DNA of 39,701 bases from an uncultured Candidatus Saccharibacteria bacterium. GTDB taxonomy: Bacteria; Patescibacteriota; Minisyncoccia; Phycocordibacterales; CAIZLB01. Below the pieces are notes generated by a model. It did no database searches. It was given only the letters and a program-made list of their open reading frames with translations, and was not told the origin of the DNA. A program made the position numbers and the translations under genes. Below, piece after piece: positions 4,289 through 39,701 of this stretch. Position 1 is the stretch's first letter. Each line of letters begins with the position of its first letter. The stretch covers positions 1 through 39,701 of the forward strand of contig CAZHNC010000001.1 of the NCBI GenBank assembly GCA_964532765.1. The letters are read 5' to 3'.

Positions 4289-5182
4289 TTAAGTTGTTTT
4301 GTAATGTGCATAAATACCTTTTTTCTTGTTATCCATAATAACTAAACCGTGATACATTCTAAATTTCATTGTATCAGCCCAAGAAACTGCGTTATCTCCT
4401 GCTGCTATAATATCAGATGGTGCATATTTAATTATTCCACCTTTTGCAGACGGTACATGAACTAATATGAAATTTAAATCTCTTCCAGTTGTTGCTGTTT
4501 TTTCAAATCCACCATTTGCAGTGTTTAATAAAGTTACTTGAGTGTAGAATCTTCCAGGTTCAACACCTATTAATGGAATCCCTTTATAAGCTGTTACAAC
4601 TTTTCCAACGTTTCCTGGTAAAGTATAATCTACATTTCTTGTAAATCCATCAGCTTTTTCAAGTAAATCAATTACATCCCAAGTACAGAAAAATACTCTA
4701 TCCATTCTAGGTACAGAAGCTTTGTTCATTGCTAAAATAGCCGTGTCCATTGCTGCCGTTACTGTTAAATTTGTCAAGTCTGCCGATACTGGTGTATATC
4801 CTGCTTTTGCATAAAGATTAGCAAATCTAATTGCATCAAGTTCAGGAATTGCATTACTTCTCATAAACTCTGCTCCAGCTCTTCCAAAAGCAATATCAGA
4901 AGTTTCTTCGTTGTCCATAGGGTCAACTTTGAAAGACGTACCTCTATCGTATGGTAGAGTGTAGTTTACAGTTGCTACTGTTACAGAGCCTTCGTGCGGT
5001 GTTCCTCCTCTTGTTACATTCCCAAAACCAGTTGTCGAGATATTTTGTACTTTTACTGTATTAACCCCAGTAAAGTTTAAATCTCCTTGTCCTGCATCTA
5101 ATACTCTTGTAATACCTTCTTGTACATAAGTTTGGTCTAGCATTGCTAGAAACTTATCTCTTAAAGCTATTGAATTTGCCAT
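4289..5182 (-). CDS. Major capsid protein
   Basis: 297 aa directly after the scaffold-like gene. N-terminus MANSIALRDKF..., size and position are typical of SPP1/HK97-fold capsid genes. Confidence 0.7.
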   Translation of the reverse strand: MANSIALRDKFLAMLDQTYVQEGITRVLDAGQGDLNFTGVNTVKVQNISTTGFGNVTRGGTPHEGSVTVATVNYTLPYDRGTSFKVDPMDNEETSDIAFGRAGAEFMRSNAIPELDAIRFANLYAKAGYTPVSADLTNLTVTAAMDTAILAMNKASVPRMDRVFFCTWDVIDLLEKADGFTRNVDYTLPGNVGKVVTAYKGIPLIGVEPGRFYTQVTLLNTANGGFEKTATTGRDLNFILVHVPSAKGGIIKYAPSDIIAAGDNAVSWADTMKFRMYHGLVIMDNKKKGIYAHYKTT

Positions 5183-5201
5183 TTTTTACCTCCATTTATT
5201 T

Positions 5202-5768
5202 TTATTTGACACCTACTTTTCTTAAGTAGTCGTCTATTTCTGCCTGTGCGTTGTTTGGTGGTGTTGGATTTGGTGCAGGTGTTTTTATAATTGGTTTAAC
5301 TGTTTGTTGACTACCAAATAAACCTTGCAATTTGTCCAACCCTTCATATGTTCCATCATCTTTTTTTACTATTTTAGGCATATAAGCCTCTATAATATCC
5401 TTGTTGTTTTCAAAATTTTCTTTACCTATAGTTTGGATTATCTCAAATTTCTTCAAAGTGTTTTCATGAGTATTTGAAAGCTCGTCATAAGAGTTTTTAG
5501 GAATAAAACTAATATTTAATTCATCAGCTGTTAATTCCTTTACTTTCTTTCCTAATGCTTTTGCAATTTGTCTTTGTCTAGCCTTTTCCTCTAATTTGTC
5601 ATTTAAAGACTGATTACCACTAAGAAGATTTTCTAACTCCTCATCAGTATATTTCTTTTCAATTTCTTTTTCAATAGTAAACTTGCTAGATAAAGCTCCT
5701 TTTAACTCTTCATTATCTGCGTTTGCTTCAATGTGCTGCAAAACTACTTCGTTTGTTAATCCTTCCAT
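5202..5768 (-). CDS. Scaffolding protein
   Basis: 188 aa, acidic and coiled-coil-like, immediately upstream of the capsid gene. Confidence 0.6.
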   Translation of the reverse strand: MEGLTNEVVLQHIEANADNEELKGALSSKFTIEKEIEKKYTDEELENLLSGNQSLNDKLEEKARQRQIAKALGKKVKELTADELNISFIPKNSYDELSNTHENTLKKFEIIQTIGKENFENNKDIIEAYMPKIVKKDDGTYEGLDKLQGLFGSQQTVKPIIKTPAPNPTPPNNAQAEIDDYLRKVGVK

Positions 5769-5818
5769 CTTAAAACCTCCGTTTATCCTCTCGAAATTTC
5801 TCCCAAGAAAATGTATTT

Positions 5819-5874
5819 AGTACTAACTAGTACTATTATAAGACTAGTATAATCTATATTACATAAAAATGCAA
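5819..5874 (-). promoter_or_regulatory. Promoter of the scaffold/capsid operon with a 16-bp palindromic motif
   Basis: Coding strand TTGCAT-17-TATACT overlaps TGTAAT-17-TATAAT (-10 at 5835..5840). AGTACTAGTTAGTACT (5819..5834) follows directly. Confidence 0.5.
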
Positions 5875-6807: not shown

Positions 6808-7911
6808 TTACAACTCTTTTTTTACTTCTTTTATTCTTTGCGTGTATTTTCTAGATGTTTGCTCTAACCTCTTAATTTTTCTTTTATCCTTGTCCAGTTG
6901 CGATTCTGATAAACTCTTTCTTTTCTCTAAATTATTCTTTTTAGCGTATCTAAGTTTATTTAACTTCTGTTCGTTGTCATATTGCTTAATCTGTGCCTTT
7001 GTACGTGTATCTGTAAGGTTGTTTGAGTACTTTTTAACCTCTTCTACATTATCGCTGTAATCTTCGTAATATGCTGTTATACGGTGTTTACAACGATTGT
7101 GCAATTGATTATATCCTTTCTTAAATCCTGGGATATCGTATAAGTAAGGATAATCACTTCTATTCTTGTTAGTTGTATACACTCTACCTTCAGCATACGT
7201 TCCACATACAGGACAACAAGTATAATGTGTGCTAAACTGCACTAAATCATTTTCTAGTTGCTCGTTACTATCAACTACTGCTTGATTGGTAGCACAGGCT
7301 ATACTTGACCTAATTTGTATCTCTGCATAGGATTTTAGATTTATACTCCTCATATTACCTAGACTATCTGCATAGATAAAACTAGTCATACCGTAATCAG
7401 TCATTTTCTGCATTATATTAGCTACAGACTGTTTTCTAAGGTCTCCGCCTATTATTTGATTGTTAGCTTGGTCCTTAACTATATCTGCTATGTACTTTTT
7501 ATTTTCCAATTCCATGGCACTCAACTGATTTTGTATACCCTTGAAGTATTTTTCTTGTCCTTGTTGCATATAGTTTATATATTCCTCTTGCAACCTTAAA
7601 ATATCCTTGCTATCTGTATAATTCCAGTCATTTTCAAACTTTTTACCTGTTATCATTTCAAATAGTCTTAAACTATCTTCTACATTTATCGTATAAGCTT
7701 GCTTAATCTTTTTTAAGAAGCTTCTTGACGTTACATCTAATCTTAATAAGTCATCTTTCAGCTGCTTTAATAAAGAGATTTTACGTTGTTTGTTGAAACT
7801 TCCTTTTTCATCATAAAATTTAGGATTAGATAATTGAGAAGTTAAGTTTGCACTCAACCTCTCTATTTGTTTTTTATATTCACTTACTATATATTCGACC
7901 TCTTTGTCCAT
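6808..7911 (-). CDS. Head morphogenesis / minor capsid protein (SPP1 gp7 / Mu F-like)
   Basis: Motifs HYTCCPVCGTYAEGRVY and LHNRCKHRITAY are typical of the Mu F/gp7 family. Long basic C-terminal tail. Confidence 0.8.
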   Translation of the reverse strand: MDKEVEYIVSEYKKQIERLSANLTSQLSNPKFYDEKGSFNKQRKISLLKQLKDDLLRLDVTSRSFLKKIKQAYTINVEDSLRLFEMITGKKFENDWNYTDSKDILRLQEEYINYMQQGQEKYFKGIQNQLSAMELENKKYIADIVKDQANNQIIGGDLRKQSVANIMQKMTDYGMTSFIYADSLGNMRSINLKSYAEIQIRSSIACATNQAVVDSNEQLENDLVQFSTHYTCCPVCGTYAEGRVYTTNKNRSDYPYLYDIPGFKKGYNQLHNRCKHRITAYYEDYSDNVEEVKKYSNNLTDTRTKAQIKQYDNEQKLNKLRYAKKNNLEKRKSLSESQLDKDKRKIKRLEQTSRKYTQRIKEVKKEL

Positions 7912-7924
7912 TTGTTACTCCTTT

Positions 7925-9193
7925 TTAAAATAACTCTTCCCATGAAGTTGTTAAGGCCACATCACTGGCTCCAGTAGAAGTCATTATATAACATATATAA
8001 TCATTTGGTAAACTTCTTATTTCTTGATTAAGCAAATCTAATGTTTTGGAATCAACTTTAGATAGAGATACAGCAAAAGTAAGTTCTGCATCTGTTAAAT
8101 CAACTGTAGCAGTTGGATTAACTTCTATCATGGAATTAGTACTTATATCTGACCAGGTTCCACCTGTGGGGGTTGTTGCTAGTTTCCATCTTTCAAAAGT
8201 TACATTTTTAGTTCCATCTGTGGCTATTGTTAAATATTTTAATAGGCTTTCAACTCTATTTTCTACTGGCGTGGTTCCATAATTTTGTTTTAAATGAAAT
8301 AAATTTATTACATTATTTATGTTTGCTGTCAAAGTTTTTGTAGTTTTACTTGTAAAAATCCTGCTAGATATTATCCTATTATATCCTCCTATACTTCCGC
8401 AAGCCACTGAAGCACTTGAAACTTTAACATTTGTAGTATTTCCACTATTTACATTCTCTATACCTATTTTTAAATAAGGCAAACTTACATGAGGAGTTGT
8501 GTTTCTATTTTGATATTCTATAGTGTGGAAATTTACCCAACCTGTATCAGTTAGTACCCAATATTTAATTGACCCAGCACCTAAATATATAAAGCTTATT
8601 CTAAATACATTTAATTTTGTTGTATCTATTAAAAATTTACTTTCTCCAGTCCCATCTAATTTGTCCTGGTTGAAATCTTCTTGTTTTATAAATTCTAAAT
8701 CAACCGAATCTTTTCTTCTTAGTATCCCAAAGTCTAACCCATTAAATCCTATTGCATAACCGTTTAAATTGTCAAATAATCCTATAAATCTTTTGTTATT
8801 AACAACCGGACTATCCCATGTAGCCGTAAAAAAGCAAAACGCTTCTTGACCTGCTTTATAAGGTAAACTTCTTTTACTTCTACCTATAGAACTTCCACTT
8901 GCATTCGTTCCGCTTCCTAAAACTAGCATACTATTTGTATTTGAAATGGTTCCACCTAGAGCCAATATACTTTGCAGTTTTCTAGTGTCTGATTGATAAG
9001 CAAAATTAGAAACAAAGGCCATATTTACATCTCCAACTATTTGTTCTCCGAATCCACTTTTAAAATTACTTTCCCCCAAAGGGTTAGCATCTCCGTTAAT
9101 TGTTAAACCTTTCATAATCTTCTTGTTAGCTTCCATTTCAAGATACCCTGCGTTAATATCATCCAAATCCACACCATTAAAAATATCTGCCAT
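7925..9193 (-). CDS. Hypothetical beta-rich protein (422 aa) heading the head-morphogenesis transcription unit
   Basis: ORF track, GGGG RBS and own promoter. Composition and alternating patterns suggest a beta-sandwich. No family recognised. Confidence 0.55.
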   Translation of the reverse strand: MADIFNGVDLDDINAGYLEMEANKKIMKGLTINGDANPLGESNFKSGFGEQIVGDVNMAFVSNFAYQSDTRKLQSILALGGTISNTNSMLVLGSGTNASGSSIGRSKRSLPYKAGQEAFCFFTATWDSPVVNNKRFIGLFDNLNGYAIGFNGLDFGILRRKDSVDLEFIKQEDFNQDKLDGTGESKFLIDTTKLNVFRISFIYLGAGSIKYWVLTDTGWVNFHTIEYQNRNTTPHVSLPYLKIGIENVNSGNTTNVKVSSASVACGSIGGYNRIISSRIFTSKTTKTLTANINNVINLFHLKQNYGTTPVENRVESLLKYLTIATDGTKNVTFERWKLATTPTGGTWSDISTNSMIEVNPTATVDLTDAELTFAVSLSKVDSKTLDLLNQEIRSLPNDYICYIMTSTGASDVALTTSWEELF

Positions 9194-9214: not shown

Positions 9215-9243
9215 ATTATAGTACTAATTAGTAATAAATTCAA
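9215..9243 (-). promoter_or_regulatory. Promoter of the 422-aa/gp7-like unit with the palindromic motif in the spacer
   Basis: Coding strand TTGAAT-17-TATAAT. ATTACTAATTAGTACT (9220..9235) overlaps the spacer and the -10. Confidence 0.5.
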
Positions 9244-9397: not shown

Positions 9398-9532
9398 TAT
9401 ATCACACCTTGAAATTTACTGTCTGCATCATATGTATCTTTTATTTTTTTCATAAAAAGCACACTCCTCATTGTTAGTTAATAATTGTTTTTAATTCATT
9501 GTTAATAATCATTCTTATTAGATTCTACTTTG

Positions 9533-9612
9533 CTAGAGAGGGGGTCTAAAGCAAACTAGAGAGGGGGTGTCTACTAAAGTAGAGAGGCTACTAGAGCAAA
9601 CTAGAGAGGGTC
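9533..9612. repeat. Four iteron-like direct repeats (22-23 bp period)
   Basis: CTAGAGAGGGGGT at 9533 and 9556 (identical), GTAGAGAGGC at 9579, CTAGAGAGGGTC at 9601. A G-rich patch in an AT-rich genome that ends 3 nt from the RepA_N-like stop codon. Confidence 0.8.
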
Positions 9613-9614
9613 TT

Positions 9615-9977
9615 TTATTCTTCAACTAAATATGCTATATATATAAGTGTAGAAGAATCATACTGATGTTTCCTTTCTATCAGTGCTTTTTTCTCTAATA
9701 AATCAAGTGCATTAGATATTGGGGTATTAGTAACATTTAACTTGTCCTTTAGCTCGGTATAAGTGTATTTTACATATACCCCTTTATCATCATAATAACC
9801 ATTTTTAGCAGATAATTTACCCCTATCAAATAACAACACATAAATTTTAAAAGCTGTTTCAGTAATTTCTTTTCTCATAAACATATCAAATACAAGCTTC
9901 TGAACTTGATAATAAATAAATCCATGACCTTCTAAATCTTCAAATACTTCTTTAGTAAAATAATAGTGTTTTATCAT
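9615..9977 (-). CDS. RepA_N-like winged-helix protein (120 aa)
   Basis: AFKIYVLLFDRGKLSAKNGYYDDKGVYVKYTYTELKDKLNVTNTPISNALDLLEKKALIERK follows the RepA_N pattern (AK.lY.LL.DR..LS.kNgw.De.G.vY...t..EL). Confidence 0.65.
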   Translation of the reverse strand: MIKHYYFTKEVFEDLEGHGFIYYQVQKLVFDMFMRKEITETAFKIYVLLFDRGKLSAKNGYYDDKGVYVKYTYTELKDKLNVTNTPISNALDLLEKKALIERKHQYDSSTLIYIAYLVEE

Positions 9978-14774: not shown

Positions 14775-14799
14775 ATAAAAAAAGAGGTATAAACCCCTT
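14775..14799 (-). terminator. Intrinsic terminator after the portal gene
   Basis: AAGGGGU pairs with ACCUCUU (one G-U pair). T7 follows on the coding strand. Confidence 0.5.
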
Positions 14800-16337
14800 T
14801 AATTATTGATATCTTCATTATTATAAAGTTGTGGTAACCGTGCAACTTGTTGTTCTATAATCAGTTTGGCTTTCTCTGCTGCTTCCTCAACTGGTATGTT
14901 ATGAAGTTCTGCAATAGCTTCCTCACTTGACATCAAACCACTCTCAACCAATTTGACATATTTATCAATTTTCTCCATTTCAGTTAGGGTAAGCATTGAA
15001 GATTTAGGGAAACTTATTTCTAGTTGTTCACCTTTCTCTTGTCTATATATAAACTCAAGTATTCTCTCAATTCCTGTCGCAACTGCTGTTTTAACCTTAC
15101 TAGACTTGATTAATACTCTAAACATATCGATTGTCTTTGCTGAAACTGCTTGAAATCCCTTTTCAGTTGTTCCTGTAGATGTTTCATTTATTCCTAGTTC
15201 AATAAAGGCTTGTTTCTGATTGCTTGATATAGTTTTGTCAACTTCTTCTCTCTTTAAATCAGTCTTAATTTGCTCAAACAAAGGCTTTTGTCCACTTCCG
15301 TTATCTCTGTAAACCAAAACCCCGTCTTGCCATTCAATTTTTGGTGTTCCTAAGTCATCATTTGACTTGGTTACAAAACCTTCATCCATAATTATCTTTG
15401 GCCTAAGTAATTCATCCATGGATTGACCATATATAGTACTGAAAACAATTATATCTCTTGCTGCAATCTTGCTTCCTTCTGTGTAAGAAGATTTACCGTA
15501 TACTTTACGGTAACCTTTTGCAGTATAAACTTCACTTACTGCCCAACCTTCGTATTCTTCTTCTATTTCTCCTTCTGAAGCAACTAAAAGATTATAGAAA
15601 TTTTCATCAAATCCAAATTGTTTTAATAATTCTAGTTCTGGAATAGTTGTTTCTAGTTCTTCATCTTCTCCTATCTCTTCTACAAACTTCATAGTAGTTT
15701 TACCATTCTCGTATATAGTTAGGAAGTAGACTTCTTTTTTATCGTTGCCTTTTTTATACTCAAACTCTTGGTGTTCTACATATGCAAGAATCTTTCTAGT
15801 GTTGTATTTAGAATATATAGGGAAATAGTTTAAAGGTGTTATCATATCGATACTATACTTTTCTTCATCGTCTTTTACTGCTTTTAATAATACGGACCCT
15901 ATTCCATGAGCATAGTTAAAGCAATCGTCAAACAATTCACTGAAACATACATCTTTATCTTTCTCATCCATCCATGTATCGTCATTCGTCGTATAACTTC
16001 CCTCTAAGTCATTCAAAGCTAATTCCTTAAGTATATCAGTAGAAATCATGTGAACGTTGTACGAGGTTACAATATCCCTTACAAAGTCGTTTAGTTTAGT
16101 TGTTCGTGTGATTAATCCATCTTTACCTACTCCATAAGCTGTTGGTATGGTCCAGTTTCTCATATCTTCACTACTAAAATTTCCATTTGCATATTTAAGT
16201 TTAACTCTTTTCATTATAACATCTTTGAAATGTTCTCCACTTCTACCATCTAGAAGCATCCTATTCTCTTCATAATTCTGATAGTCTGCATCATGCTCGG
16301 CTAGTTCCCAAGCTTGCTTTATTAAGTTGTTTTCCAT
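14799..16337 (-). CDS. Portal protein
   Basis: 512 aa downstream of terL, separated from it by one small ORF. Trimmed to the ATG at 16337, which forms a TAATG overlap with the upstream ORF behind RBS AGAGGTG. Confidence 0.75.
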   Translation of the reverse strand: MENNLIKQAWELAEHDADYQNYEENRMLLDGRSGEHFKDVIMKRVKLKYANGNFSSEDMRNWTIPTAYGVGKDGLITRTTKLNDFVRDIVTSYNVHMISTDILKELALNDLEGSYTTNDDTWMDEKDKDVCFSELFDDCFNYAHGIGSVLLKAVKDDEEKYSIDMITPLNYFPIYSKYNTRKILAYVEHQEFEYKKGNDKKEVYFLTIYENGKTTMKFVEEIGEDEELETTIPELELLKQFGFDENFYNLLVASEGEIEEEYEGWAVSEVYTAKGYRKVYGKSSYTEGSKIAARDIIVFSTIYGQSMDELLRPKIIMDEGFVTKSNDDLGTPKIEWQDGVLVYRDNGSGQKPLFEQIKTDLKREEVDKTISSNQKQAFIELGINETSTGTTEKGFQAVSAKTIDMFRVLIKSSKVKTAVATGIERILEFIYRQEKGEQLEISFPKSSMLTLTEMEKIDKYVKLVESGLMSSEEAIAELHNIPVEEAAEKAKLIIEQQVARLPQLYNNEDINN

Positions 16338-16585
16338 TAATTCACCTCTGCTATAAGCTTTTGAATTTCTTGTATTAATTCTATGCTTACTTTTAAAGTG
16401 CAAATTCCATCTTTTTGACCTTCTTCAAGTATTTTTTCAATGAGTTTATTAACAAAATCTTTTAAAATTTTGTTTTCTTTTTCAATCTTTGTACTTTCTA
16501 ATAAAATACTTCTTAATCCTTCGTATCCTACATCAGATTTTTTCATTAAATTAATTATTTTTTCATTTTCATTTTCGTTATGCAT
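16337..16585 (-). CDS. Hypothetical protein (82 aa) between terL and portal
   Basis: ORF track. Confidence 0.5.
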   Translation of the reverse strand: MHNENENEKIINLMKKSDVGYEGLRSILLESTKIEKENKILKDFVNKLIEKILEEGQKDGICTLKVSIELIQEIQKLIAEVN

Positions 16586-16596
16586 TTTTACCCCCT

Positions 16597-18333
16597 TTAA
16601 TATCCTGTCATTCTTACACTAGTAAAGTTTCCTAGCCTTCTTCTAGCTTCTTCATGTACTGCATAAGCAATTGCAACTGCTATCACTCTATCTTTTCCGT
16701 TAGTTTCAACTTTTCCGTTTTCCGTTTGAATGGTCCTCATTTGCTTTAATGTCCTAACACTGTTAATTTTAATACTCTCTTCTCTATGTGCTTGGTCTAA
16801 TTTATCTAACATAATATATTTACTTTTACCATTTGTGGACCACCCTAATTTTTCAACTGTGGTATTTCTTATCTTATCAACTGTCTTTTCAATATAAAGG
16901 TTTCTTCTATATCCTAGCTCATTATCTAAAGTATTTAATGTACTGTGTCCATGATTGTTCCGTTCTACTGCTATAAAAGCATTATTGTATTTCTTAGCCC
17001 ATTCGTGAAGTATTCTTGCGTGATTTTCAGGCTTTTCTATATACTCCCCATTGGCTACCTCTTCCATTGTTTCTAGGTCCAGTATAAAGAAAGTAGAACT
17101 ATCTCTATCCTCTAAACCTTCCGCAACGTCTGACCCTATACAATACTTTCTATTCTTAACAGGCTCATGGTATACTTCTACATCTCCACCTTTTAACATT
17201 TTAAAGTTATTCAAGTCTTTCATTTCGTTTATTTGATAATCTAGTAATTCAATATCAAAGTAAGGTGTACCACTGTGTAAAAATGCTTGCTCTGGGAAAC
17301 AAGGATATTCCTGGTATACTTTAGCCTTTAACTCTTGCCTTTTGCTAAAATACCAGTGAAGCTGTTCAAGTGTTAGTTTATCTTTCATGGTTCCTAGGAA
17401 CTTCATAAACTCACTATCTACACCTTTAAATCTTTCCCCTAGTTCAACTGCTCTTAAGAAATCATATTCGGTATAGTCTAACCCTCTAAACTCTCTTTGA
17501 TACTCGCTTGTTTTAAACCACTCATAAAAAAATGCTTTATAGTTTGAGTTTCCTTCTTGTGCTAAATCCCAAGCTTCTTTAAACAAGTTATAGCCATTTG
17601 CTGTAGTTTCTACTATCTCAATACTGTGTTTAGCTAGGGCTTGTCCTATTGCTGCTTTGTTAACTTCCATATTTTCCCAAAAGGCCTGTTCAGAAGAGTG
17701 TAACATTCTAAGTTTTTTTCCCCTACCGGCTCCCTTACTTCCTGCAGTAGCTATTCTCCAAGCTGAATCATTGCTTTCTAATACCAACTCTTTAGCGTTT
17801 GACCTTTTAGGATTTTCCTTCACTTCGTCAATCAAGTTATCGTACATATTTTTAGCAATGTCACTAAATATGCTTGAAGTAGAATCCGTATCATGTGCCA
17901 TTGTAAACCCTCTGAACCCATGTTCTACCATTGAAAAGCTCAATTGGATAGCTGTTATTAGTGTACTAAATCCTTGTTGTCTACCTTTTAAAACTATATA
18001 CTTGATTGAATCCATTTCTCTTTTTCTCTGCTTTTCATAGTCTACACAAAAATGTTTTTCCATGAAATCAGTTTGTACTTCATTGTAGAAAAACGGCACC
18101 GTTACAAAGTCTTTGTTAGTTAGCCTAAAGAATAACTCAATCAGTAAAAAAGGTTGTTTCCTAATTTCTTCTGTCATTTCTTTTCCTATGTATTTACCTT
18201 TATAAGGACCTTCATTATTCCATAACATAGCCACATACCTATTAAACTCTTTGTCCTCTTCTATATCCTTATACTGTTCCCAAATTTTCTTTCTTTTTTC
18301 AATAAGTTCTTTAACTATCTGCATACTTATCAC
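16597..18333 (-). CDS. terL: Terminase large subunit
   Basis: 578 aa following terS. ATPase-type segment VLKGRQQGFSTLI is present. Size and order are typical. Confidence 0.88.
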   Translation of the reverse strand: MISMQIVKELIEKRKKIWEQYKDIEEDKEFNRYVAMLWNNEGPYKGKYIGKEMTEEIRKQPFLLIELFFRLTNKDFVTVPFFYNEVQTDFMEKHFCVDYEKQRKREMDSIKYIVLKGRQQGFSTLITAIQLSFSMVEHGFRGFTMAHDTDSTSSIFSDIAKNMYDNLIDEVKENPKRSNAKELVLESNDSAWRIATAGSKGAGRGKKLRMLHSSEQAFWENMEVNKAAIGQALAKHSIEIVETTANGYNLFKEAWDLAQEGNSNYKAFFYEWFKTSEYQREFRGLDYTEYDFLRAVELGERFKGVDSEFMKFLGTMKDKLTLEQLHWYFSKRQELKAKVYQEYPCFPEQAFLHSGTPYFDIELLDYQINEMKDLNNFKMLKGGDVEVYHEPVKNRKYCIGSDVAEGLEDRDSSTFFILDLETMEEVANGEYIEKPENHARILHEWAKKYNNAFIAVERNNHGHSTLNTLDNELGYRRNLYIEKTVDKIRNTTVEKLGWSTNGKSKYIMLDKLDQAHREESIKINSVRTLKQMRTIQTENGKVETNGKDRVIAVAIAYAVHEEARRRLGNFTSVRMTGY

Positions 18334-18703
18334 TCATTTCGCTGAATGTAGTTTTCTTGTCATTCTGCTTTTCTACAAATCCACCTTGTGCCTTATAAAG
18401 CAACTCAGATGCCTTTATACGGTCTCCACTTTTTACCTCACTATTATTCAACATATTAGTCCAAAACTCTCTAATCTCCTCTAGGGTGGCTATACGTTTA
18501 TTTGTGTGTATGTTTGAGAATTTACTTATGTATTCTTTTACGTTAGCGTTGGTTAGTAATTTACTAGCATTTACCTTTGCTGTTTCATCTGTCTTGCAAG
18601 TTTTATAAGCTGTTTTATATGCTAACGCACCATTACCATGTTTTGCGTACTCTTCACAAAATATCTTTTGTTTTGGGTTAAGTTCTTTTTCTTCCTTACC
18701 CAT
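18311..18703 (-). CDS. terS: Terminase small subunit
   Basis: LNPKQKIFCEEYAKHGNGALAYKTAYK...AKVNASKLLTNANVKEYI follows the Terminase_2 pattern (kq..F..eY...gN...A...AGY). Confidence 0.8.
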   Translation of the reverse strand: MGKEEKELNPKQKIFCEEYAKHGNGALAYKTAYKTCKTDETAKVNASKLLTNANVKEYISKFSNIHTNKRIATLEEIREFWTNMLNNSEVKSGDRIKASELLYKAQGGFVEKQNDKKTTFSEMSDKYADS

Positions 18704-18743
18704 ATTTACCACATTCTTTCATATATTTGACCTCCATCAATTT

Positions 18744-18788
18744 ATTACTAACTAGTACTATTCTACTCTAAAAATAATTTTTTATCAA
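18744..18788 (-). promoter_or_regulatory. Promoter of the terS-terL-portal unit with the palindromic motif
   Basis: Coding strand TTGATA-17-TAGAAT, immediately followed by AGTACTAGTTAGTAAT (18744..18759). Confidence 0.55.
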
Positions 18789-26580: not shown

Positions 26581-26609
26581 AGTATAACATTTGTTTTACA
26601 ATTTGTCAA
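26581..26609 (-). promoter_or_regulatory. Near-consensus promoter of the replication operon
   Basis: Coding strand TTGACA-17-TATACT. Confidence 0.65.
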
Positions 26610-26621
26610 ACATATTTTTTC

Positions 26622-26652
26622 AAAAAATAAAAATAGTAGGTTTTACCCTACT
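26622..26652 (-). terminator. Intrinsic terminator after the 177-aa/55-aa unit
   Basis: AGUAGG pairs with CCUACU. UAUUUUUAUUUUUU follows on the coding strand. Confidence 0.55.
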
Positions 26653-26810
26653 ACCTTCACATAATATTTATGGTCTTTCTTTTCTATCTTATATACATTA
26701 TTATCCTTTGATTCTAACTTGTAATTCCATTCTCCTAGTATAGAGTTAAGGAAATGTACAAACCATTGTAAATCGCTTGGTATGGTGTTTAATAGTGTTG
26801 GTAAGTCCAT
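26643..26810 (-). CDS. Hypothetical protein (55 aa)
   Basis: Hand-translated MDLPTLLNTIPSDLQWFVHFLNSILGEWNYKLESKD... RBS GGAGGT. Confidence 0.4.
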   Translation of the reverse strand: MDLPTLLNTIPSDLQWFVHFLNSILGEWNYKLESKDNNVYKIEKKDHKYYVKVVG

Positions 26811-26824
26811 ATTACCTCCTAGTA

Positions 26825-27358
26825 TTATTTACCGTAGTTTCTTAAAACTGCTGCTTCTATACAAAATCTGATAGTTTGGATCGTGTATCTTTGACCGTTT
26901 GTTTCAAAATCATGTACTAGCATATCTTTTGCTATTTTGAATTTAGTTTCTCCTTTTTCCACAAGTGCTTTAGTTAAATCTTTGGCATAGTCTACAGCTC
27001 CACCTATGATACTATCTTGAGTTAGAACTAATTTTCTAAGTTGGTCAACATTTTGAATTTCTAAGAGCAATTCATTCCAATGTGGTAAATCCTCATCATA
27101 AATATGTAATTCTGGATTCATTACCTCAATTTCTGATAAAACTTCTTGAGCTGTCAAATTAGGTTTCTCTCTTGAGATATCCTCGAACTCTTCGATTGAA
27201 TGCACAAGGTTATTTACTTTCTCTTGTATCTCCTGGATAATATCCCCTTTTTCATTAGAAAACAATCCCAATAAGAATTCTAAAAACTTCTTGCTCTCAA
27301 ATCTGAAAAACTTAAACTTTGTTAAAAATGTTAAAACTTTCTGTAAAAATCTACCCAT
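26825..27358 (-). CDS. Hypothetical protein (177 aa) next to the switch region
   Basis: ORF track. Own promoter carrying the palindromic motif. No family recognised. Confidence 0.55.
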   Translation of the reverse strand: MGRFLQKVLTFLTKFKFFRFESKKFLEFLLGLFSNEKGDIIQEIQEKVNNLVHSIEEFEDISREKPNLTAQEVLSEIEVMNPELHIYDEDLPHWNELLLEIQNVDQLRKLVLTQDSIIGGAVDYAKDLTKALVEKGETKFKIAKDMLVHDFETNGQRYTIQTIRFCIEAAVLRNYGK

Positions 27359-27382
27359 ATTAAAACCTCCTGTATTTTATTT

Positions 27383-27427
27383 ACTACTAACTAGTAATAG
27401 TTTACCATTGTTTTTATTAAATTTCAA
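27383..27427 (-). promoter_or_regulatory. Promoter of the 177-aa unit with the palindromic motif
   Basis: Coding strand TTGAAA-17-TAAACT, immediately followed by ATTACTAGTTAGTAGT (27383..27398). Confidence 0.5.
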
Positions 27428-27806: not shown

Positions 27807-27827
27807 TATATCAACTCCTTTTTATAA

Positions 27828-27911
27828 ATATTAACACAAAAAAAATAATTTGTCAATATTCAAAAAAATATTAAAATTAATATTGACATTAACTATTTTT
27901 AGGTATATAAT
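27828..27911. promoter_or_regulatory. Divergent back-to-back promoters with operator-like symmetry (genetic switch)
   Basis: Rightward TTGACA(27883..27888)-17-TATAAT(27906..27911). Leftward TTGACA(rc 27851..27856)-17-TAATAT(rc 27828..27833). Inverted repeat TGTCAATATT/AATATTGACA. AATATT boxes at 27855, 27867 and 27879. Confidence 0.7.
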
Positions 27912-27940
27912 CTAATTAACAAATACATAGGAGGTCAACT

Positions 27941-29749: not shown

Positions 29750-30682
29750 ATGAGAAAAGCAAGTCACGAGAAAACACTTCACTACACAATAGGAGAAGCA
29801 GGAGGGCAAATAGGGGAAATATTCAAACAGAATAAATATGATGTTATAGCTTATAATACAGCTAAAGCTGATATGGATAAGTTAAAACAAATTACTGATA
29901 AAAGACTTATAGGAATCACAGAAGGAAGTGGAAAAGATAGAAAACTTTCTGCAAAATCTTTTGAGGATAACATAGATAAAATAAGAACTTCTGTTACACA
30001 AGATATGTCAAACAAGGAAGTTGCTTTTGTTTATACTTCTATGAGTGGTGGTACAGGAAGTGGATCCGCAATAAGACTAGCTAAACTGATTAACCAATTA
30101 GGTAAAAAAGCTATCATAGTTGCTGTAAAGCCTGTCAATGGAGAAATAGGAAAAGCTGAAAATAACTATTTGCAATTTTTAGCTGAATTTGAAAAAGATA
30201 AAAATGATCTAGTGTTAAATATGTTTGAGAATGAATTTGATTATGTAAAAATTAACAAGTACATCTATGAAACAATTGATAATTTCTTAAATCCTGTAGG
30301 AGAAAGTATCACAACTTTTGACTTTATGGACTCTTTAAAAGCTTTTAGAAGTGGTTATTGTGTAATGGCTACTGGAAACACTAAAGAAATTATAATAAAC
30401 TCAATGTTTGAATTAAACAAGTCTGAAACTTGTGTGTTAATCTCTCAAAGCCCACAATCTGTAGATGGATACCAAGAAATGACAAAGAGAAATTACGGTT
30501 ACCTGGATAGACAATACTACGAATACAGAGTTCAAGAAAATCCTAAGTGGACTATATTGATTGGTGGTTTACAGTTACCAGTTGAAACTATTTCAGTTTT
30601 AGCAAAAGAAGTTAATCAGAAAGCACAATTGCTTAATGCTAAAAAAGATGCTTTAACTTTCAACATTTTAGGTATAGATTAA
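29750..30682 (+). CDS. Tubulin/FtsZ-superfamily GTPase (PhuZ/TubZ-like, 310 aa)
   Basis: Loops in canonical order: T1 TIGEAGGQIGEIF, AYNTAKAD, T3 GITEGSGKD, T4 SMSGGTGSGS (fits the tubulin signature [SAG]GGTG[SA]G), T5 VKPVNGE, T7 TFDFMD...GYCVMATG. Confidence 0.85.
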   Translation: MRKASHEKTLHYTIGEAGGQIGEIFKQNKYDVIAYNTAKADMDKLKQITDKRLIGITEGSGKDRKLSAKSFEDNIDKIRTSVTQDMSNKEVAFVYTSMSGGTGSGSAIRLAKLINQLGKKAIIVAVKPVNGEIGKAENNYLQFLAEFEKDKNDLVLNMFENEFDYVKINKYIYETIDNFLNPVGESITTFDFMDSLKAFRSGYCVMATGNTKEIIINSMFELNKSETCVLISQSPQSVDGYQEMTKRNYGYLDRQYYEYRVQENPKWTILIGGLQLPVETISVLAKEVNQKAQLLNAKKDALTFNILGID

Positions 30683-30691
30683 GGAGTATAT

Positions 30692-31177
30692 ATGAAACAC
30701 CTACTAATATTTTTAATTTTATCAATTTCGTGTTTAGCTGAAACTTTTAGTTTTGGCTATTCACTTAATACAACTCATATAAAGTCGCCTAGTCGTGATT
30801 ATGACTTTGTAGAGGATAATCAAGTATTTACACTAGAGAAACGCAATGGAAGCGAAATAAAAGGTTTTACGCACTTTACAAACAGTTTTGGAAATGAAAG
30901 TGCAATGATATACATAGGACAAATTAAAGATAAGAATAATAAATGTTTGTATTTTAAATACTCTTTTGGATTGTGTAAAGGTTATAATGAAGTTGATAAA
31001 TTACCGAGCAAAACTATTAAAAATATGTATTGGGAGTTTAGAAATTATACTGTATTTTATAAAGATTATTCAATAGTTCCAATGGTTTCAGTAGGTTATC
31101 AATTCAGCAAGGATTTAGCATTAGAAACACTTTTAGTAGGAAATGCTTTTGTTACTAATATTAAAATAACTTTTTAG
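30692..31177 (+). CDS. Small secreted outer-membrane beta-barrel candidate (161 aa)
   Basis: Signal peptide MKHLLIFLILSISCLA. C-terminal beta-signal FVTNIKITF with alternating hydrophobic residues and a terminal Phe. Mature size ~145 aa fits an 8-stranded barrel. Confidence 0.55.
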   Translation: MKHLLIFLILSISCLAETFSFGYSLNTTHIKSPSRDYDFVEDNQVFTLEKRNGSEIKGFTHFTNSFGNESAMIYIGQIKDKNNKCLYFKYSFGLCKGYNEVDKLPSKTIKNMYWEFRNYTVFYKDYSIVPMVSVGYQFSKDLALETLLVGNAFVTNIKITF

Positions 31178-37652: not shown

Positions 37653-39701
37653 TAGTAAGACCTCCTTGCGTTTCCTGTTTGATTAAATCTACTTTGATTT
37701 TGACTAGTTGCCACCATTTCGCTAAAATCTTTTGAGTAGTTGTTCTCAATTCTATATATAGTTTGATAAGTTTGGCCGTAACTTGCATTACTAGATTGAA
37801 ACTCTGCACTAGCTACTTTTAATCCAGTAGGTAAATTTTTTGTTGAAACTTGGTTTAGTTGTTCAGTTGCTGAACTTGCTGCAAGTCCTAATCGTTCTAA
37901 AATTTCTTGTAATTTTTCGCTAGAGGCTCCATAAATTTCGGTATAAGCTGCCAACATTTCTTCAAAACTCATACCTTTAAAATCTATTCCTAAATTAATT
38001 CCTTCAGTTGTTAATTCGTTTAGCAAAGCTTCAGATATTGCACCACTAAAGTTTTTATTAAGAGCTTCAAAGGCTTGTTGGCTAAAGAAAGCTTCTATCA
38101 AACCATTTTTAAACATATCTGTAACACTTTCAGATATACTTCCACCACTTTTAAATACATCTACCATGTTAGAAATAAAGTCTTGACTAGATAGACTTAA
38201 AGCTTCTGCAAACCCATCAATATTTGTCTGCCATGCTTCAGCAATCAATTTATTTATTTCTGCCATAGCTCCAGTTACATCATAACCACTTATATATGAC
38301 TTTTCTTTACCCCAGTCTGACAAATCTCTGTAAGTTTCTCTTTTTGCGTATTTACCAAAGATTGCGTCAACATCAATACCACTATAACCACCACCAGCAA
38401 GAGCTTTTTTAATCGCTGTAGTGTCGACTGTTGCGTTTTTAGAACCCCAAGAAACACTACCACCACCAAGTATACCACTTATTATGTCGAAAGGTGCAGT
38501 TAATAGACCTTGATTAAGTCCACCACCTCCAACACCACCAGCCATTAGATCACTTGGTTTTGTTAATTGTGCGAAAGATATCTTTTGTCCTAAAGTAAAA
38601 TCTTCAACTGACTTTTTGAAACTTTCAACAGCTTCTTGGAATTTAGTATTAGCTTCATTTTGCTTTTCTTCCATGTCACTATCATTTAAAAAACTATCTA
38701 ATTGATTAACTAAAGCTAAACCACTTGAAATACTCCCTAAAACATTTCCACTCATTAAGCTTGTAGCTAGGTTTCCACCAGCACCAATTAAACTTGCCAT
38801 AGCTCCTAGAAGGTCATCTTCAAATAATGTTGCTAACTCTCCAGCTATTTTAGAAGTTTCAGAAAATGCATCGCCAACTTTAGCTATTTTTTTTCTGTTT
38901 TCTTCTTGAATCCTTTGAGCTTCTTCGTTTGTTTTTTTAATGTTTTCTAATTCTTTGTTATTTTTTTCTTCCTGTAGTTTTATTTCTTTTTCTTTAGCTT
39001 CGTTTTCTTTATCTTGTTTTTTCTTTAGATTGTCCTCAAACTTTTGTTGTTGTCTTTTTTCAAAGTTATCGTAATCTTGCATAGCCTTTTCAAATCCAGC
39101 TTCTAATACTACATTAGTTTCTAAATCTGTAACAGTTGTTCCACCTGTACCAGTTGAGCTACTTCCTCCTGTACCTGTGCCTTTATTATTGTTTATATCG
39201 TTTACCCATTCATTATCTGTGAAAACTTTAAAATCTCCACTTTTACGCAAATCATTTAATAAAGTATCTTGATTTCCTGTATCTAGTCCTAAAGTTCCAA
39301 AAGTCATATTATAAGTTTTACTTGCTGCCGTTCCAGCTTCTTTATAACTTCCGCCTTTTTCAAGTATACTTCTAGCCGTTCCAAGTGCTGCAGTAACTGA
39401 AATTTGTTTTTTAACTTCTATACTCATTCCTTTTGTAAACTTTACATAAAAACTTAAAGTATCAAATAAATCTTGTCCTATTTCTGATTTTGTCTGTCTA
39501 CTAGAATTTATTAATTCTTTAAAACTTCCTTTAATTCCATCTGTAATATTTTCAATACTAGTTGCAGTTGTTTCTAAAGGTTTTTCTATTCCTAAAGCCC
39601 AATTTCCAACTTTTTCAAATATTCCACTAAACTGTTCAAAACCATTGGCTATATTAGTTAATGATTCTCCAAAAGTATCTACGTAACCTAGTGTTACAAA
39701 C
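37652..39701 (-). CDS. Tail tape measure protein, C-terminal part (continuation of 1..914)
   Basis: The frame of the tracked ORF 37652..39427 stays open upstream to 39701 (...FVTLGYVDTFGESLTNIANGF...KGMSIEVKKQ). Contains a coiled-coil K/E-rich centre and Gly-rich tracts. Confidence 0.9.
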   Translation of the reverse strand, partial: FVTLGYVDTFGESLTNIANGFEQFSGIFEKVGNWALGIEKPLETTATSIENITDGIKGSFKELINSSRQTKSEIGQDLFDTLSFYVKFTKGMSIEVKKQISVTAALGTARSILEKGGSYKEAGTAASKTYNMTFGTLGLDTGNQDTLLNDLRKSGDFKVFTDNEWVNDINNNKGTGTGGSSSTGTGGTTVTDLETNVVLEAGFEKAMQDYDNFEKRQQQKFEDNLKKKQDKENEAKEKEIKLQEEKNNKELENIKKTNEEAQRIQEENRKKIAKVGDAFSETSKIAGELATLFEDDLLGAMASLIGAGGNLATSLMSGNVLGSISSGLALVNQLDSFLNDSDMEEKQNEANTKFQEAVESFKKSVEDFTLGQKISFAQLTKPSDLMAGGVGGGGLNQGLLTAPFDIISGILGGGSVSWGSKNATVDTTAIKKALAGGGYSGIDVDAIFGKYAKRETYRDLSDWGKEKSYISGYDVTGAMAEINKLIAEAWQTNIDGFAEALSLSSQDFISNMVDVFKSGGSISESVTDMFKNGLIEAFFSQQAFEALNKNFSGAISEALLNELTTEGINLGIDFKGMSFEEMLAAYTEIYGASSEKLQEILERLGLAASSATEQLNQVSTKNLPTGLKVASAEFQSSNASYGQTYQTIYRIENNYSKDFSEMVATSQNQSRFNQTGNARRSY

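Follow-up and report, generated by a model that had tools for sequence, protein, structure and literature searches.

The phage genome and its late units

The window, i.e. the whole stretch of 39,701 nucleotides that was analysed, is a phage genome with a GC content of about 29% which is present in wastewater and aquatic metagenomes. The tape-measure ORF runs off the window at base 1 and continues in frame from base 39701, and the window thus represents a complete circular or circularly permuted genome of 39.7 kb. Megablast against deposited phages returned no close DNA relative, no cultured phage exceeds approximately 32% identity at the protein level, and exact-peptide scans with TerL found no relatives; the TerL relatives discussed below were obtained only via a large protein search. 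Among its other genes are those for an ERF recombinase, Gp157, a tubulin/TubZ-like GTPase, a Holliday-junction resolvase, an antirepressor and a RepA_N winged-helix protein; neither an integrase nor a CI-type repressor was found in the phage. The GTPase (310 aa, window 29750-30682) belongs to the tubulin/FtsZ family (Pfam Tubulin E 4e-11, GGTGSG motif), and in this 40-kb phage its gene follows those for ERF, an SSB-like protein and Gp157. A 161-aa protein (window 30692-31177), which has a homolog of 28% identity in the related phage L113, carries a signal peptide and ends in an aromatic residue; it looks like a small outer-membrane beta-barrel moron, and a protein of this type would fit a diderm (Fusobacteria) host.

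Four units of this genome are headed by promoters that carry the same palindrome (Table 1). TerS of the packaging unit matches Pfam Terminase_2 above the cut-off; TerL and the portal match Terminase_6C and SPP1_portal below it, with homologs named terminase for the former and homologs that support the portal identity for the latter. A terminator-like hairpin with a T-run is located directly upstream of the terS promoter (by eye), and a scan places a terminator at the end of the packaging unit (14800-14781). One of the two head units encodes a 422-aa virion structural protein (phrog_1645, E 1.5e-32) and minor capsid protein 2 (Pfam Phage_min_cap2, E 9e-13). The other encodes a scaffold-like protein, the homologs of which in relatives L002-L005 are annotated Phage_scaffold, and the major head protein (phrog_422, E 1.6e-63), with head-tail and then tail genes downstream as far as the window start. 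The fourth unit encodes proteins of 177 and 55 aa, has its terminator at 26660-26627 and is possibly lysis-related. The assignment of a terS-terL-portal, a scaffold/capsid and a 422-aa unit in the preliminary description thus holds on Pfam, PHROG and homolog evidence.

A mini-ORF of nine codons (MKECGKYG*) with a strong GGAGG is found upstream of terS (window 18700-18735). Its stop codon overlaps the terS ATG (ATGGGTAA), which suggests translational coupling. In the relative L006, terS begins directly at the ATG that corresponds to that of the window.

Table 1. Operators, promoters, units and candidate DNA-binding proteins of the phage (window coordinates)
Feature	Coordinates	Strand	Description
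O-scaffold operator	5818..5835	-	TAGTACTAGTTAGTACTA; perfect palindrome except centre; abuts TATAAT 5835-5840
Scaffold promoter region	5835..5874	-	-35 TTGCAT 5869-5874; TATACT 5846-5851 (17-bp spacing); TATAAT 5835-5840 (by eye)
Scaffold and capsid genes	4289..5768	-	188-aa scaffold-like gene 5202-5768; major head protein 4289-5182
O-422 operator	9219..9236	-	TATTACTAATTAGTACTA; fills 17-bp spacer; last two bases are first two of -10
422-aa unit promoter	9215..9243	-	TTGAAT-17-TATAAT; promoter scan, 10/12 matches
422-aa unit	6808..9193	-	422-aa virion structural protein 7925-9193; 367-aa minor capsid protein 2, 6808-7911
O-terS operator	18743..18760	-	Perfect 18-mer TAGTACTAGTTAGTAATA; first base is last base of -10
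terS promoter	18760..18788	-	TTGATA-17-TAGAAT; promoter scan, 10/12 matches; heads terS, terL, 82-aa ORF, portal
Packaging unit	14799..18712	-	terS 18311-18712; terL 16597-18333; portal 14799-16403
O-177 operator	27382..27399	-	Perfect 18-mer TATTACTAGTTAGTAGTA; first base is last base of -10 TAAACT
177-aa unit promoter	27399..27427	-	TTGAAA-17-TAAACT; by eye; heads 177-aa and 55-aa genes
177-aa and 55-aa genes	26643..27358	-	177-aa C-terminus weakly Holin_LLH-like (E 2e-4, below cut-off)
AbrB/MazE-like protein, 53 aa	27645..27806	-	First gene of leftward early operon; alternative candidate binder
RHH-like protein, 51 aa	14185..14340	-	Fold judged from sequence pattern only; no Pfam hit; alternative candidate binder
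RepA_N winged-helix protein, 120 aa	9615..9977	-	Pfam RepA_N E 9e-9; sole winged-helix protein in the phage

The operator and its position in the promoters

The preliminary description had reported a 16-bp palindrome with a TACTA-N2-TAGTA core (TACTANNTAGTA) at four positions of the coding (minus) strand. A scan of the window with the core recovers all four exact matches at these positions where 0.15 are expected, and none of 100 dinucleotide-preserving shuffles reaches four; cores with one or two mismatches are found at chance level only (10 against 16.5 expected). Comparison with related sites shows the true unit to be an 18-bp palindrome, TAnTACTA-RY-TAGTAnTA (TANTACTARYTAGTANTA). The four copies are real, and their extent had been underestimated at first reading. 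All four are perfect 18-mers. The window holds no site with one or two mismatches to the 18-bp pattern and two with three mismatches (chance level), and the distribution is hence cleanly bimodal. Rather than occurring in coding sequence, all four copies are intergenic in a window of which 9.4% is intergenic (P ~8e-5), and they occupy four of 20 intergenic gaps. The operator consists of 8-bp half-sites with centres 10 bp apart, a geometry that fits the (pseudo)palindrome of 16-20 bp, with half-sites separated by roughly one helical turn, expected of MarR operators.

The promoter context agrees with what had been described. O-scaffold, O-terS and O-177 begin at the last base of the -10 element and O-422 fills the spacer between -35 and -10. 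Assuming that transcription starts approximately 7 nt downstream of the -10, the operator at the first three promoters would span about -7 to +11. By sequence all four operators overlap core promoter elements, which is consistent with repression. The operator-bearing promoters are four of about 11 strong intergenic promoters in the window. The other seven or so, which lack the operator, include the two in the divergent early region and those at 26609, 20984, 14738, 12304 and 10164, and neither the divergent early region (27807-27940) nor the other early promoters contain an operator within three mismatches.

The scaffold promoter is less regular. The TATAAT that abuts O-scaffold has a poor -35, and the good TTGCAT is instead spaced 17 bp from the upstream TATACT; if TATACT is used, O-scaffold may be positioned at about +5 to +22. 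The L113 scaffold promoter has an intact TTGCAT-17-TATAAT with the operator directly after it. Alignment with L113 reveals an 11-bp insertion in the window (5841-5868) which moves TTGCAT off TATAAT and creates TATACT at 17 bp, and L117 shares this insertion.

Conservation in related phages

The operator cassette is kept in the diverged relatives L006, L001, L113/L114, L117 and L126, and its flanks diverge. An orthologous operator is found upstream of terS in L006, L113/L114, L126 and L177, and the same cassette is located upstream of the scaffold homologs of L113 (17745) and L117. In L006, the TerL of which is 89% identical, the terS operator follows the -10, and a variant (TACTAATTAGTA) in the spacer upstream of the 422-aa homolog (14301) has the same place and the same central AT as O-422. 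L001 (TerL 68%) has two TATAAT-operator promoters, one of which heads a small-membrane-protein unit and the other a unit that extends into terS. L113 and L114 are IMG/VR phages that share 51% identity with the window in the capsid protein, 40% in TerS and 33% in the portal, and in L113 a TATAAT-operator promoter occurs three times, before a holin-like unit, before terS, and before scaffold plus capsid. When nine promoters of four diverged phages are aligned, invariance is confined to the -10, the operator and the two A's after it; the -35 boxes, spacers and leaders diverge. Retention of the candidate site at the same promoters supports both the view that its dyad symmetry reflects a dimeric regulator and the late-gene regulon signal that had been proposed, the regulon comprising packaging, head and probably lysis genes.

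L117 and L126 carry the window's own cassettes before different downstream genes, which marks the cassette as a mosaic module, and contig mosaic breakpoints are located just upstream of the terS promoter. The motif is absent from L002-L005, TerL relatives at 58% identity that encode cI-type HTH repressors, and hence does not characterise the TerL clade as a whole; the TerL relatives from Fusobacterium/Cetobacterium are without it. A first scan of viral sequences with AATAGTACTAGTTAGTA gave no matches. Runs labelled RNA-Seq contain only relatives of 90-95% identity as assembled contigs, which carry no 5'-end information.

In L006 (6387-8937) an ORF for a 170-aa HNH_3 endonuclease splits TerL into two pieces, which are 82% and 89% identical to the window TerL; the cause is probably either disruption by a homing endonuclease or an insertion of the intron or intein type.

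The same palindrome at chromosomal MarR genes

When 185,579 species genomes were scanned with ANTACTAGTTAGTANTAAA, 78 loci were obtained, about the number expected by chance. In 19 of these a gene for a MarR homolog of approximately 147 aa is no more than 170 bp away from the site (35 bp or less in most cases), and in 15 of the 19 the MarR gene is bracketed by two to three sites that are approximately 40 and 500 bp apart. Of the 59 loci without MarR, 57 have just one site, which is about the chance number. The MarR loci occur in Arcobacter, Poseidonibacter, Halarcobacter, Clostridium, Metaclostridioides, Vallitaleaceae, spirochaetes and Fusobacteriaceae, and at least five bacterial phyla are represented. 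MarR is the sole gene common to these loci, and no phage genes were found near them. Its neighbours outside the Fusobacteria (Arcobacter, Clostridium, spirochaetes) include YceI, pirin, nitroreductase and a WrbA-type flavodoxin. In Fusobacteriaceae MAGs (L110-L112, L094-L096) MarR is directly followed by panB-panC-panD with the operator between MarR and panB, which makes panBCD a candidate for a MarR-controlled pantothenate operon.

The phage and chromosomal sites also agree outside the search pattern, where the flanking T-A is present in 20 of 20 cases in 10 phage sites and in 81-89 of 92 in 46 MarR-locus sites, and at the centre, where both sets are restricted to A/G and then T/C. The spacer between -35 and -10 of MarR's own promoter contains the site in Fusobacteriaceae and Campylobacteraceae, and in Fusobacteriaceae the register is that of O-422. 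The Fusobacteriaceae MarR promoter (TTGAAA-aa-ATTACTAATTAGTAGT-ATAAT) and the O-422 promoter (TTGAAT-tt-ATTACTAATTAGTACT-ATAAT) are identical at 27 of 30 positions and share the central AT. We infer with high confidence that at the chromosomal loci the palindrome is the operator of an autoregulated MarR protein of about 147 aa. An 18-bp operator is thereby newly defined for a widespread, uncharacterised clade of MhqR-like MarR proteins; no relevant paper on the operator sequence was found in the literature searched.

The MarR protein reaches no NCBIfam equivalog, its best solved structure is the MarR-family entry 9qdr, and some source annotations read MhqR or '2-MHQ and catechol resistance regulon repressor'. 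No named Fusobacterium or Cetobacterium species is among the homologs found. MarR proteins of Ilyobacter have the same recognition helix and only degenerate sites, and the mapping from protein to site is therefore not one-to-one. Covariation of protein and operator was considered as a line of evidence and set aside as uninformative because the recognition helix is the same in MarR proteins with perfect and with degenerate sites. A MarR homolog of Fusibacter with 46% identity (L100:2950-3000) has TCACTAATTAGTGA in its own promoter spacer, where both arms read CACTA in place of TACTA, and carries a serine for a glycine ahead of the recognition helix; the two changes are a possible case of protein-operator co-variation.

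A phage without MarR and its likely host

The phage itself encodes no MarR protein. Tblastn with three members of the family against the window returned nothing even at E 10, the same search at E 1 against L001, L006, L090/L091 and L113/L114 returned only a 64-aa Cro-like HTH protein (E 0.1), and Pfam searches with most window ORFs found no MarR. The phage thus has putative operators of a host repressor on its promoters and no copy of the repressor.

Homologs of TerL that are named Fusobacterium ulcerans and Cetobacterium point to Fusobacteriaceae as the host family. A Fusobacteriaceae MAG, CAZHXU01, combines the operator-bearing MarR locus L096 with a CRISPR array (L052:2827-4900) of at least 32 repeats (GTTTACATTCCACTTTGGTTAGATAAAAAC), two spacers of which match the operator-bearing relative L001 at 35 of 35 positions. 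One of these two spacers corresponds to the promoter-operator cassette and also has a 25/25 nt match to window 5816-5840. The combination of a MarR locus and L001 spacers in one MAG indicates that a MarR-bearing member of the Fusobacteriaceae has met an operator-bearing phage of the group; the host of the window phage may carry MarR as well. A search for further CRISPR arrays with the L052 repeat found only L052 itself. In four metagenomes that hold the phage, and which may be virus-enriched, no MarR locus was found at 80% nucleotide identity or above and only the phage's promoter pieces matched. By targeting a regulatory cassette that is conserved, a spacer of this kind could act across several phages.

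Proposed repression of late promoters by a host MarR protein

Since the identical operator brackets a chromosomal MarR gene, the natural binder of the phage operators would be that MarR, and their effect would be repression, as operator position and the behaviour of the family suggest. On balance we consider it probable, if by no great measure, that a host MarR protein represses the four late promoters by occlusion. In this model the phage has placed perfect copies of the host MarR operator on four strong sigma-70-type promoters, where a MarR dimer would exclude RNA polymerase and thereby silence the terS-terL-portal operon, the two head operons (422-aa protein and minor capsid; scaffold/capsid onward) and the 177-aa unit. 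The early switch and the replication promoters, which are without operator, would be under phage control.

A host repressor on late promoters requires a relief mechanism during lytic growth, and none is evident. Speculatively, repression could be released when MarR binds a small-molecule effector or when replicating phage DNA titrates MarR out, an effect that autoregulation of MarR would partly buffer. In Fusobacteriaceae the panBCD context hints at an effector related to pantothenate or CoA; in the other taxa the effectors may be quinones or electrophiles. A more far-reaching version, which we regard as rather doubtful, is that this group of phages has no late activator, and that its late promoters are kept shut by a low-abundance host MarR sensor, the one associated in Fusobacteriaceae with the operon for pantothenate (vitamin B5) biosynthesis, and opened by titration, in the manner of a copy-number timer, or by a change in a host metabolite. 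Virion production would in that case be coupled directly to the metabolic or electrophile status of the host.

Two other roles of the palindrome were considered and rejected. For an RNA hairpin, the transcription start should fall inside the palindrome at three sites and the palindrome is untranscribed at the fourth; for an activator site, the sites overlap -10/+1 or the spacer at normal 17-bp spacing.

Alternative readings of the palindrome

The late regulators of phages are usually encoded by the phages themselves, and the preliminary description had looked to the RHH-like and AbrB-like small proteins as binders. A phage protein of this kind, or the RepA_N protein, could bind the palindrome and run the late regulon, with the match to the MarR sites being mimicry that acts on host targets, or coincidence. 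All three have counterparts in the distant, operator-bearing L113. The AbrB/MazE-like protein (Pfam MazE_antitoxin E 2e-4, below the cut-off; phrog_4681, E 5e-5) has a 49-aa analogue at a similar position, the RepA_N protein, which also gives a sub-threshold match to a MarR HTH (E 7e-5), has a homolog of 39% identity, and homologs of the RHH-like protein at 41-43% identity are encoded in L113/L114 and L177, where each gene precedes the terS operator by a few hundred bp. The closest relative, L006, nevertheless encodes a homolog of none of the three in 14.5 kb that are syntenic from portal to the 422-aa gene and keep two operators; the three proteins were likewise not found in L001, and both contigs are partial. 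The RepA_N protein appears to have its own iterons adjoining, since four iteron-like repeats (CCCTCTCTAGTTTGCT-type) are located at approximately 9520-9620, downstream of its gene and just upstream of O-422. A winged-helix dimer is better suited than proteins of the AbrB or RHH type to a palindrome of 18 bp whose half-sites are about 10 bp apart. The chromosomal MarR loci with the identical 18-bp site encode none of the three, and a phage binder would leave the agreement with the host sites in flanks, centre and promoter register unexplained. The small-protein candidates have gained no positive support, and a phage-encoded binder seems to us unlikely.

The mosaic nature of the cassettes raises the question of whether the palindrome is only a passenger of a mobile promoter cassette with no regulatory role, and maybe no more than a homology patch for module shuffling. 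The phages would then have captured, or would be exchanging, a strong promoter of host type. The identical cassettes before different genes in L117 and L126, the breakpoints just upstream of the terS promoter and the 27/30 identity between the O-422 promoter and a host MarR promoter would all be expected of such a passenger. A passenger would hardly be found in three to four independent copies per genome and in two promoter registers, each copy a perfect 18-mer beside -35 boxes, spacers and leaders that differ, nor be limited to late units, absent from the seven or so other strong promoters and conserved at 33-51% protein identity. These properties point to selection on the operator itself and make the passenger reading quite improbable. 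The sites could also serve as a sink, with four high-affinity-looking copies per genome that are multiplied by replication and titrate the host MarR in order to derepress host targets such as panBCD, which follows MarR in the Fusobacteriaceae loci, with control of phage genes being secondary. A sink does not, however, need an overlap in fixed register with the core promoter elements of late operons, nor is there evidence that pantothenate supply limits phage growth, and we give this idea scarcely any credence. Repression of the late promoters by the host MarR thus remains the preferred reading.

Relation to known systems

To our knowledge, the only well-known cases of phages that sense their host by means of one of its repressors involve LexA and the SOS response. 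If the proposed mechanism is correct, it would represent a different input channel, in which a metabolic or electrophile state takes the place of DNA damage and in which control is exerted at the late genes and not at the lysogeny switch. Temperate T7-like phages such as LUZ100 and the pelagiphages encode their own MarR repressor beside the integrase and have MarR palindromes dispersed over their promoters. The phage described here resembles them in the spread of MarR-type palindromic operators over its promoters and differs in that it encodes neither a MarR protein nor an integrase.

The annotations lead to MhqR (YkvE), a quinone-sensing, autoregulated MarR repressor of Bacillus subtilis and Staphylococcus aureus, which binds the palindrome TATCTCGAA-aTCGAaATA at -6 to +12, represses transcription and is released by methylhydroquinone (PMC6798810). 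The MhqR operator overlaps the transcription start, which is the position predicted here for the phage operators at the three promoters where they abut the -10, and the non-fusobacterial MarR genes likewise neighbour genes of quinone/electrophile detoxification. The 9-9 bp MhqR operator is, however, unrelated in sequence to TAnTACTA-RY-TAGTAnTA, so that the phage sites are not canonical MhqR operators, and panBCD lies beside MarR in Fusobacteriaceae, where the effector may differ. No MhqR sites on a phage were found in the literature searched.

According to the abstract of the study, loss of the MarR-like protein PamR (YdcH) of B. subtilis alters prophage gene expression at the transcriptome level, and only its own promoter is a direct target (PMC5730154). 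PamR is thus similar in being a MarR-type host regulator with an influence on (pro)phage genes, as is proposed here; it differs in that no defined operator on the late promoters of a phage is described for it.

A closer parallel in logic is provided by GIL01 and other SOS-box phages, which employ the host LexA as a repressor. In GIL01, an extrachromosomal temperate phage, LexA works together with the helper gp7 at the early lysogenic promoter, and the late genes need a phage activator (PMC4551915, PMC6182141). In both cases operators of a host stress sensor would be located on promoters for which the phage has no repressor of its own, and host physiology would gate phage development. The sensor differs, being a putative MarR rather than LexA, as does the signal, which for GIL01 is DNA damage. 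Furthermore, the distribution is the reverse of what would be expected of an operator at an early or lysogeny promoter, as in the window the early switch is without operator and the late promoters carry it.

The operator is usable as a host-prediction marker for these uncultured phages. It is also found in two metagenome contigs (L160:2018-2749 and L180:2574-3337) on a phage-like element with a GC content of 32% and no homologs of window genes, in which two perfect 18-bp operators, approximately 750 bp apart and each with a short hairpin beside it, flank a gene for a 160-aa protein. This element may have borrowed the operator independently.
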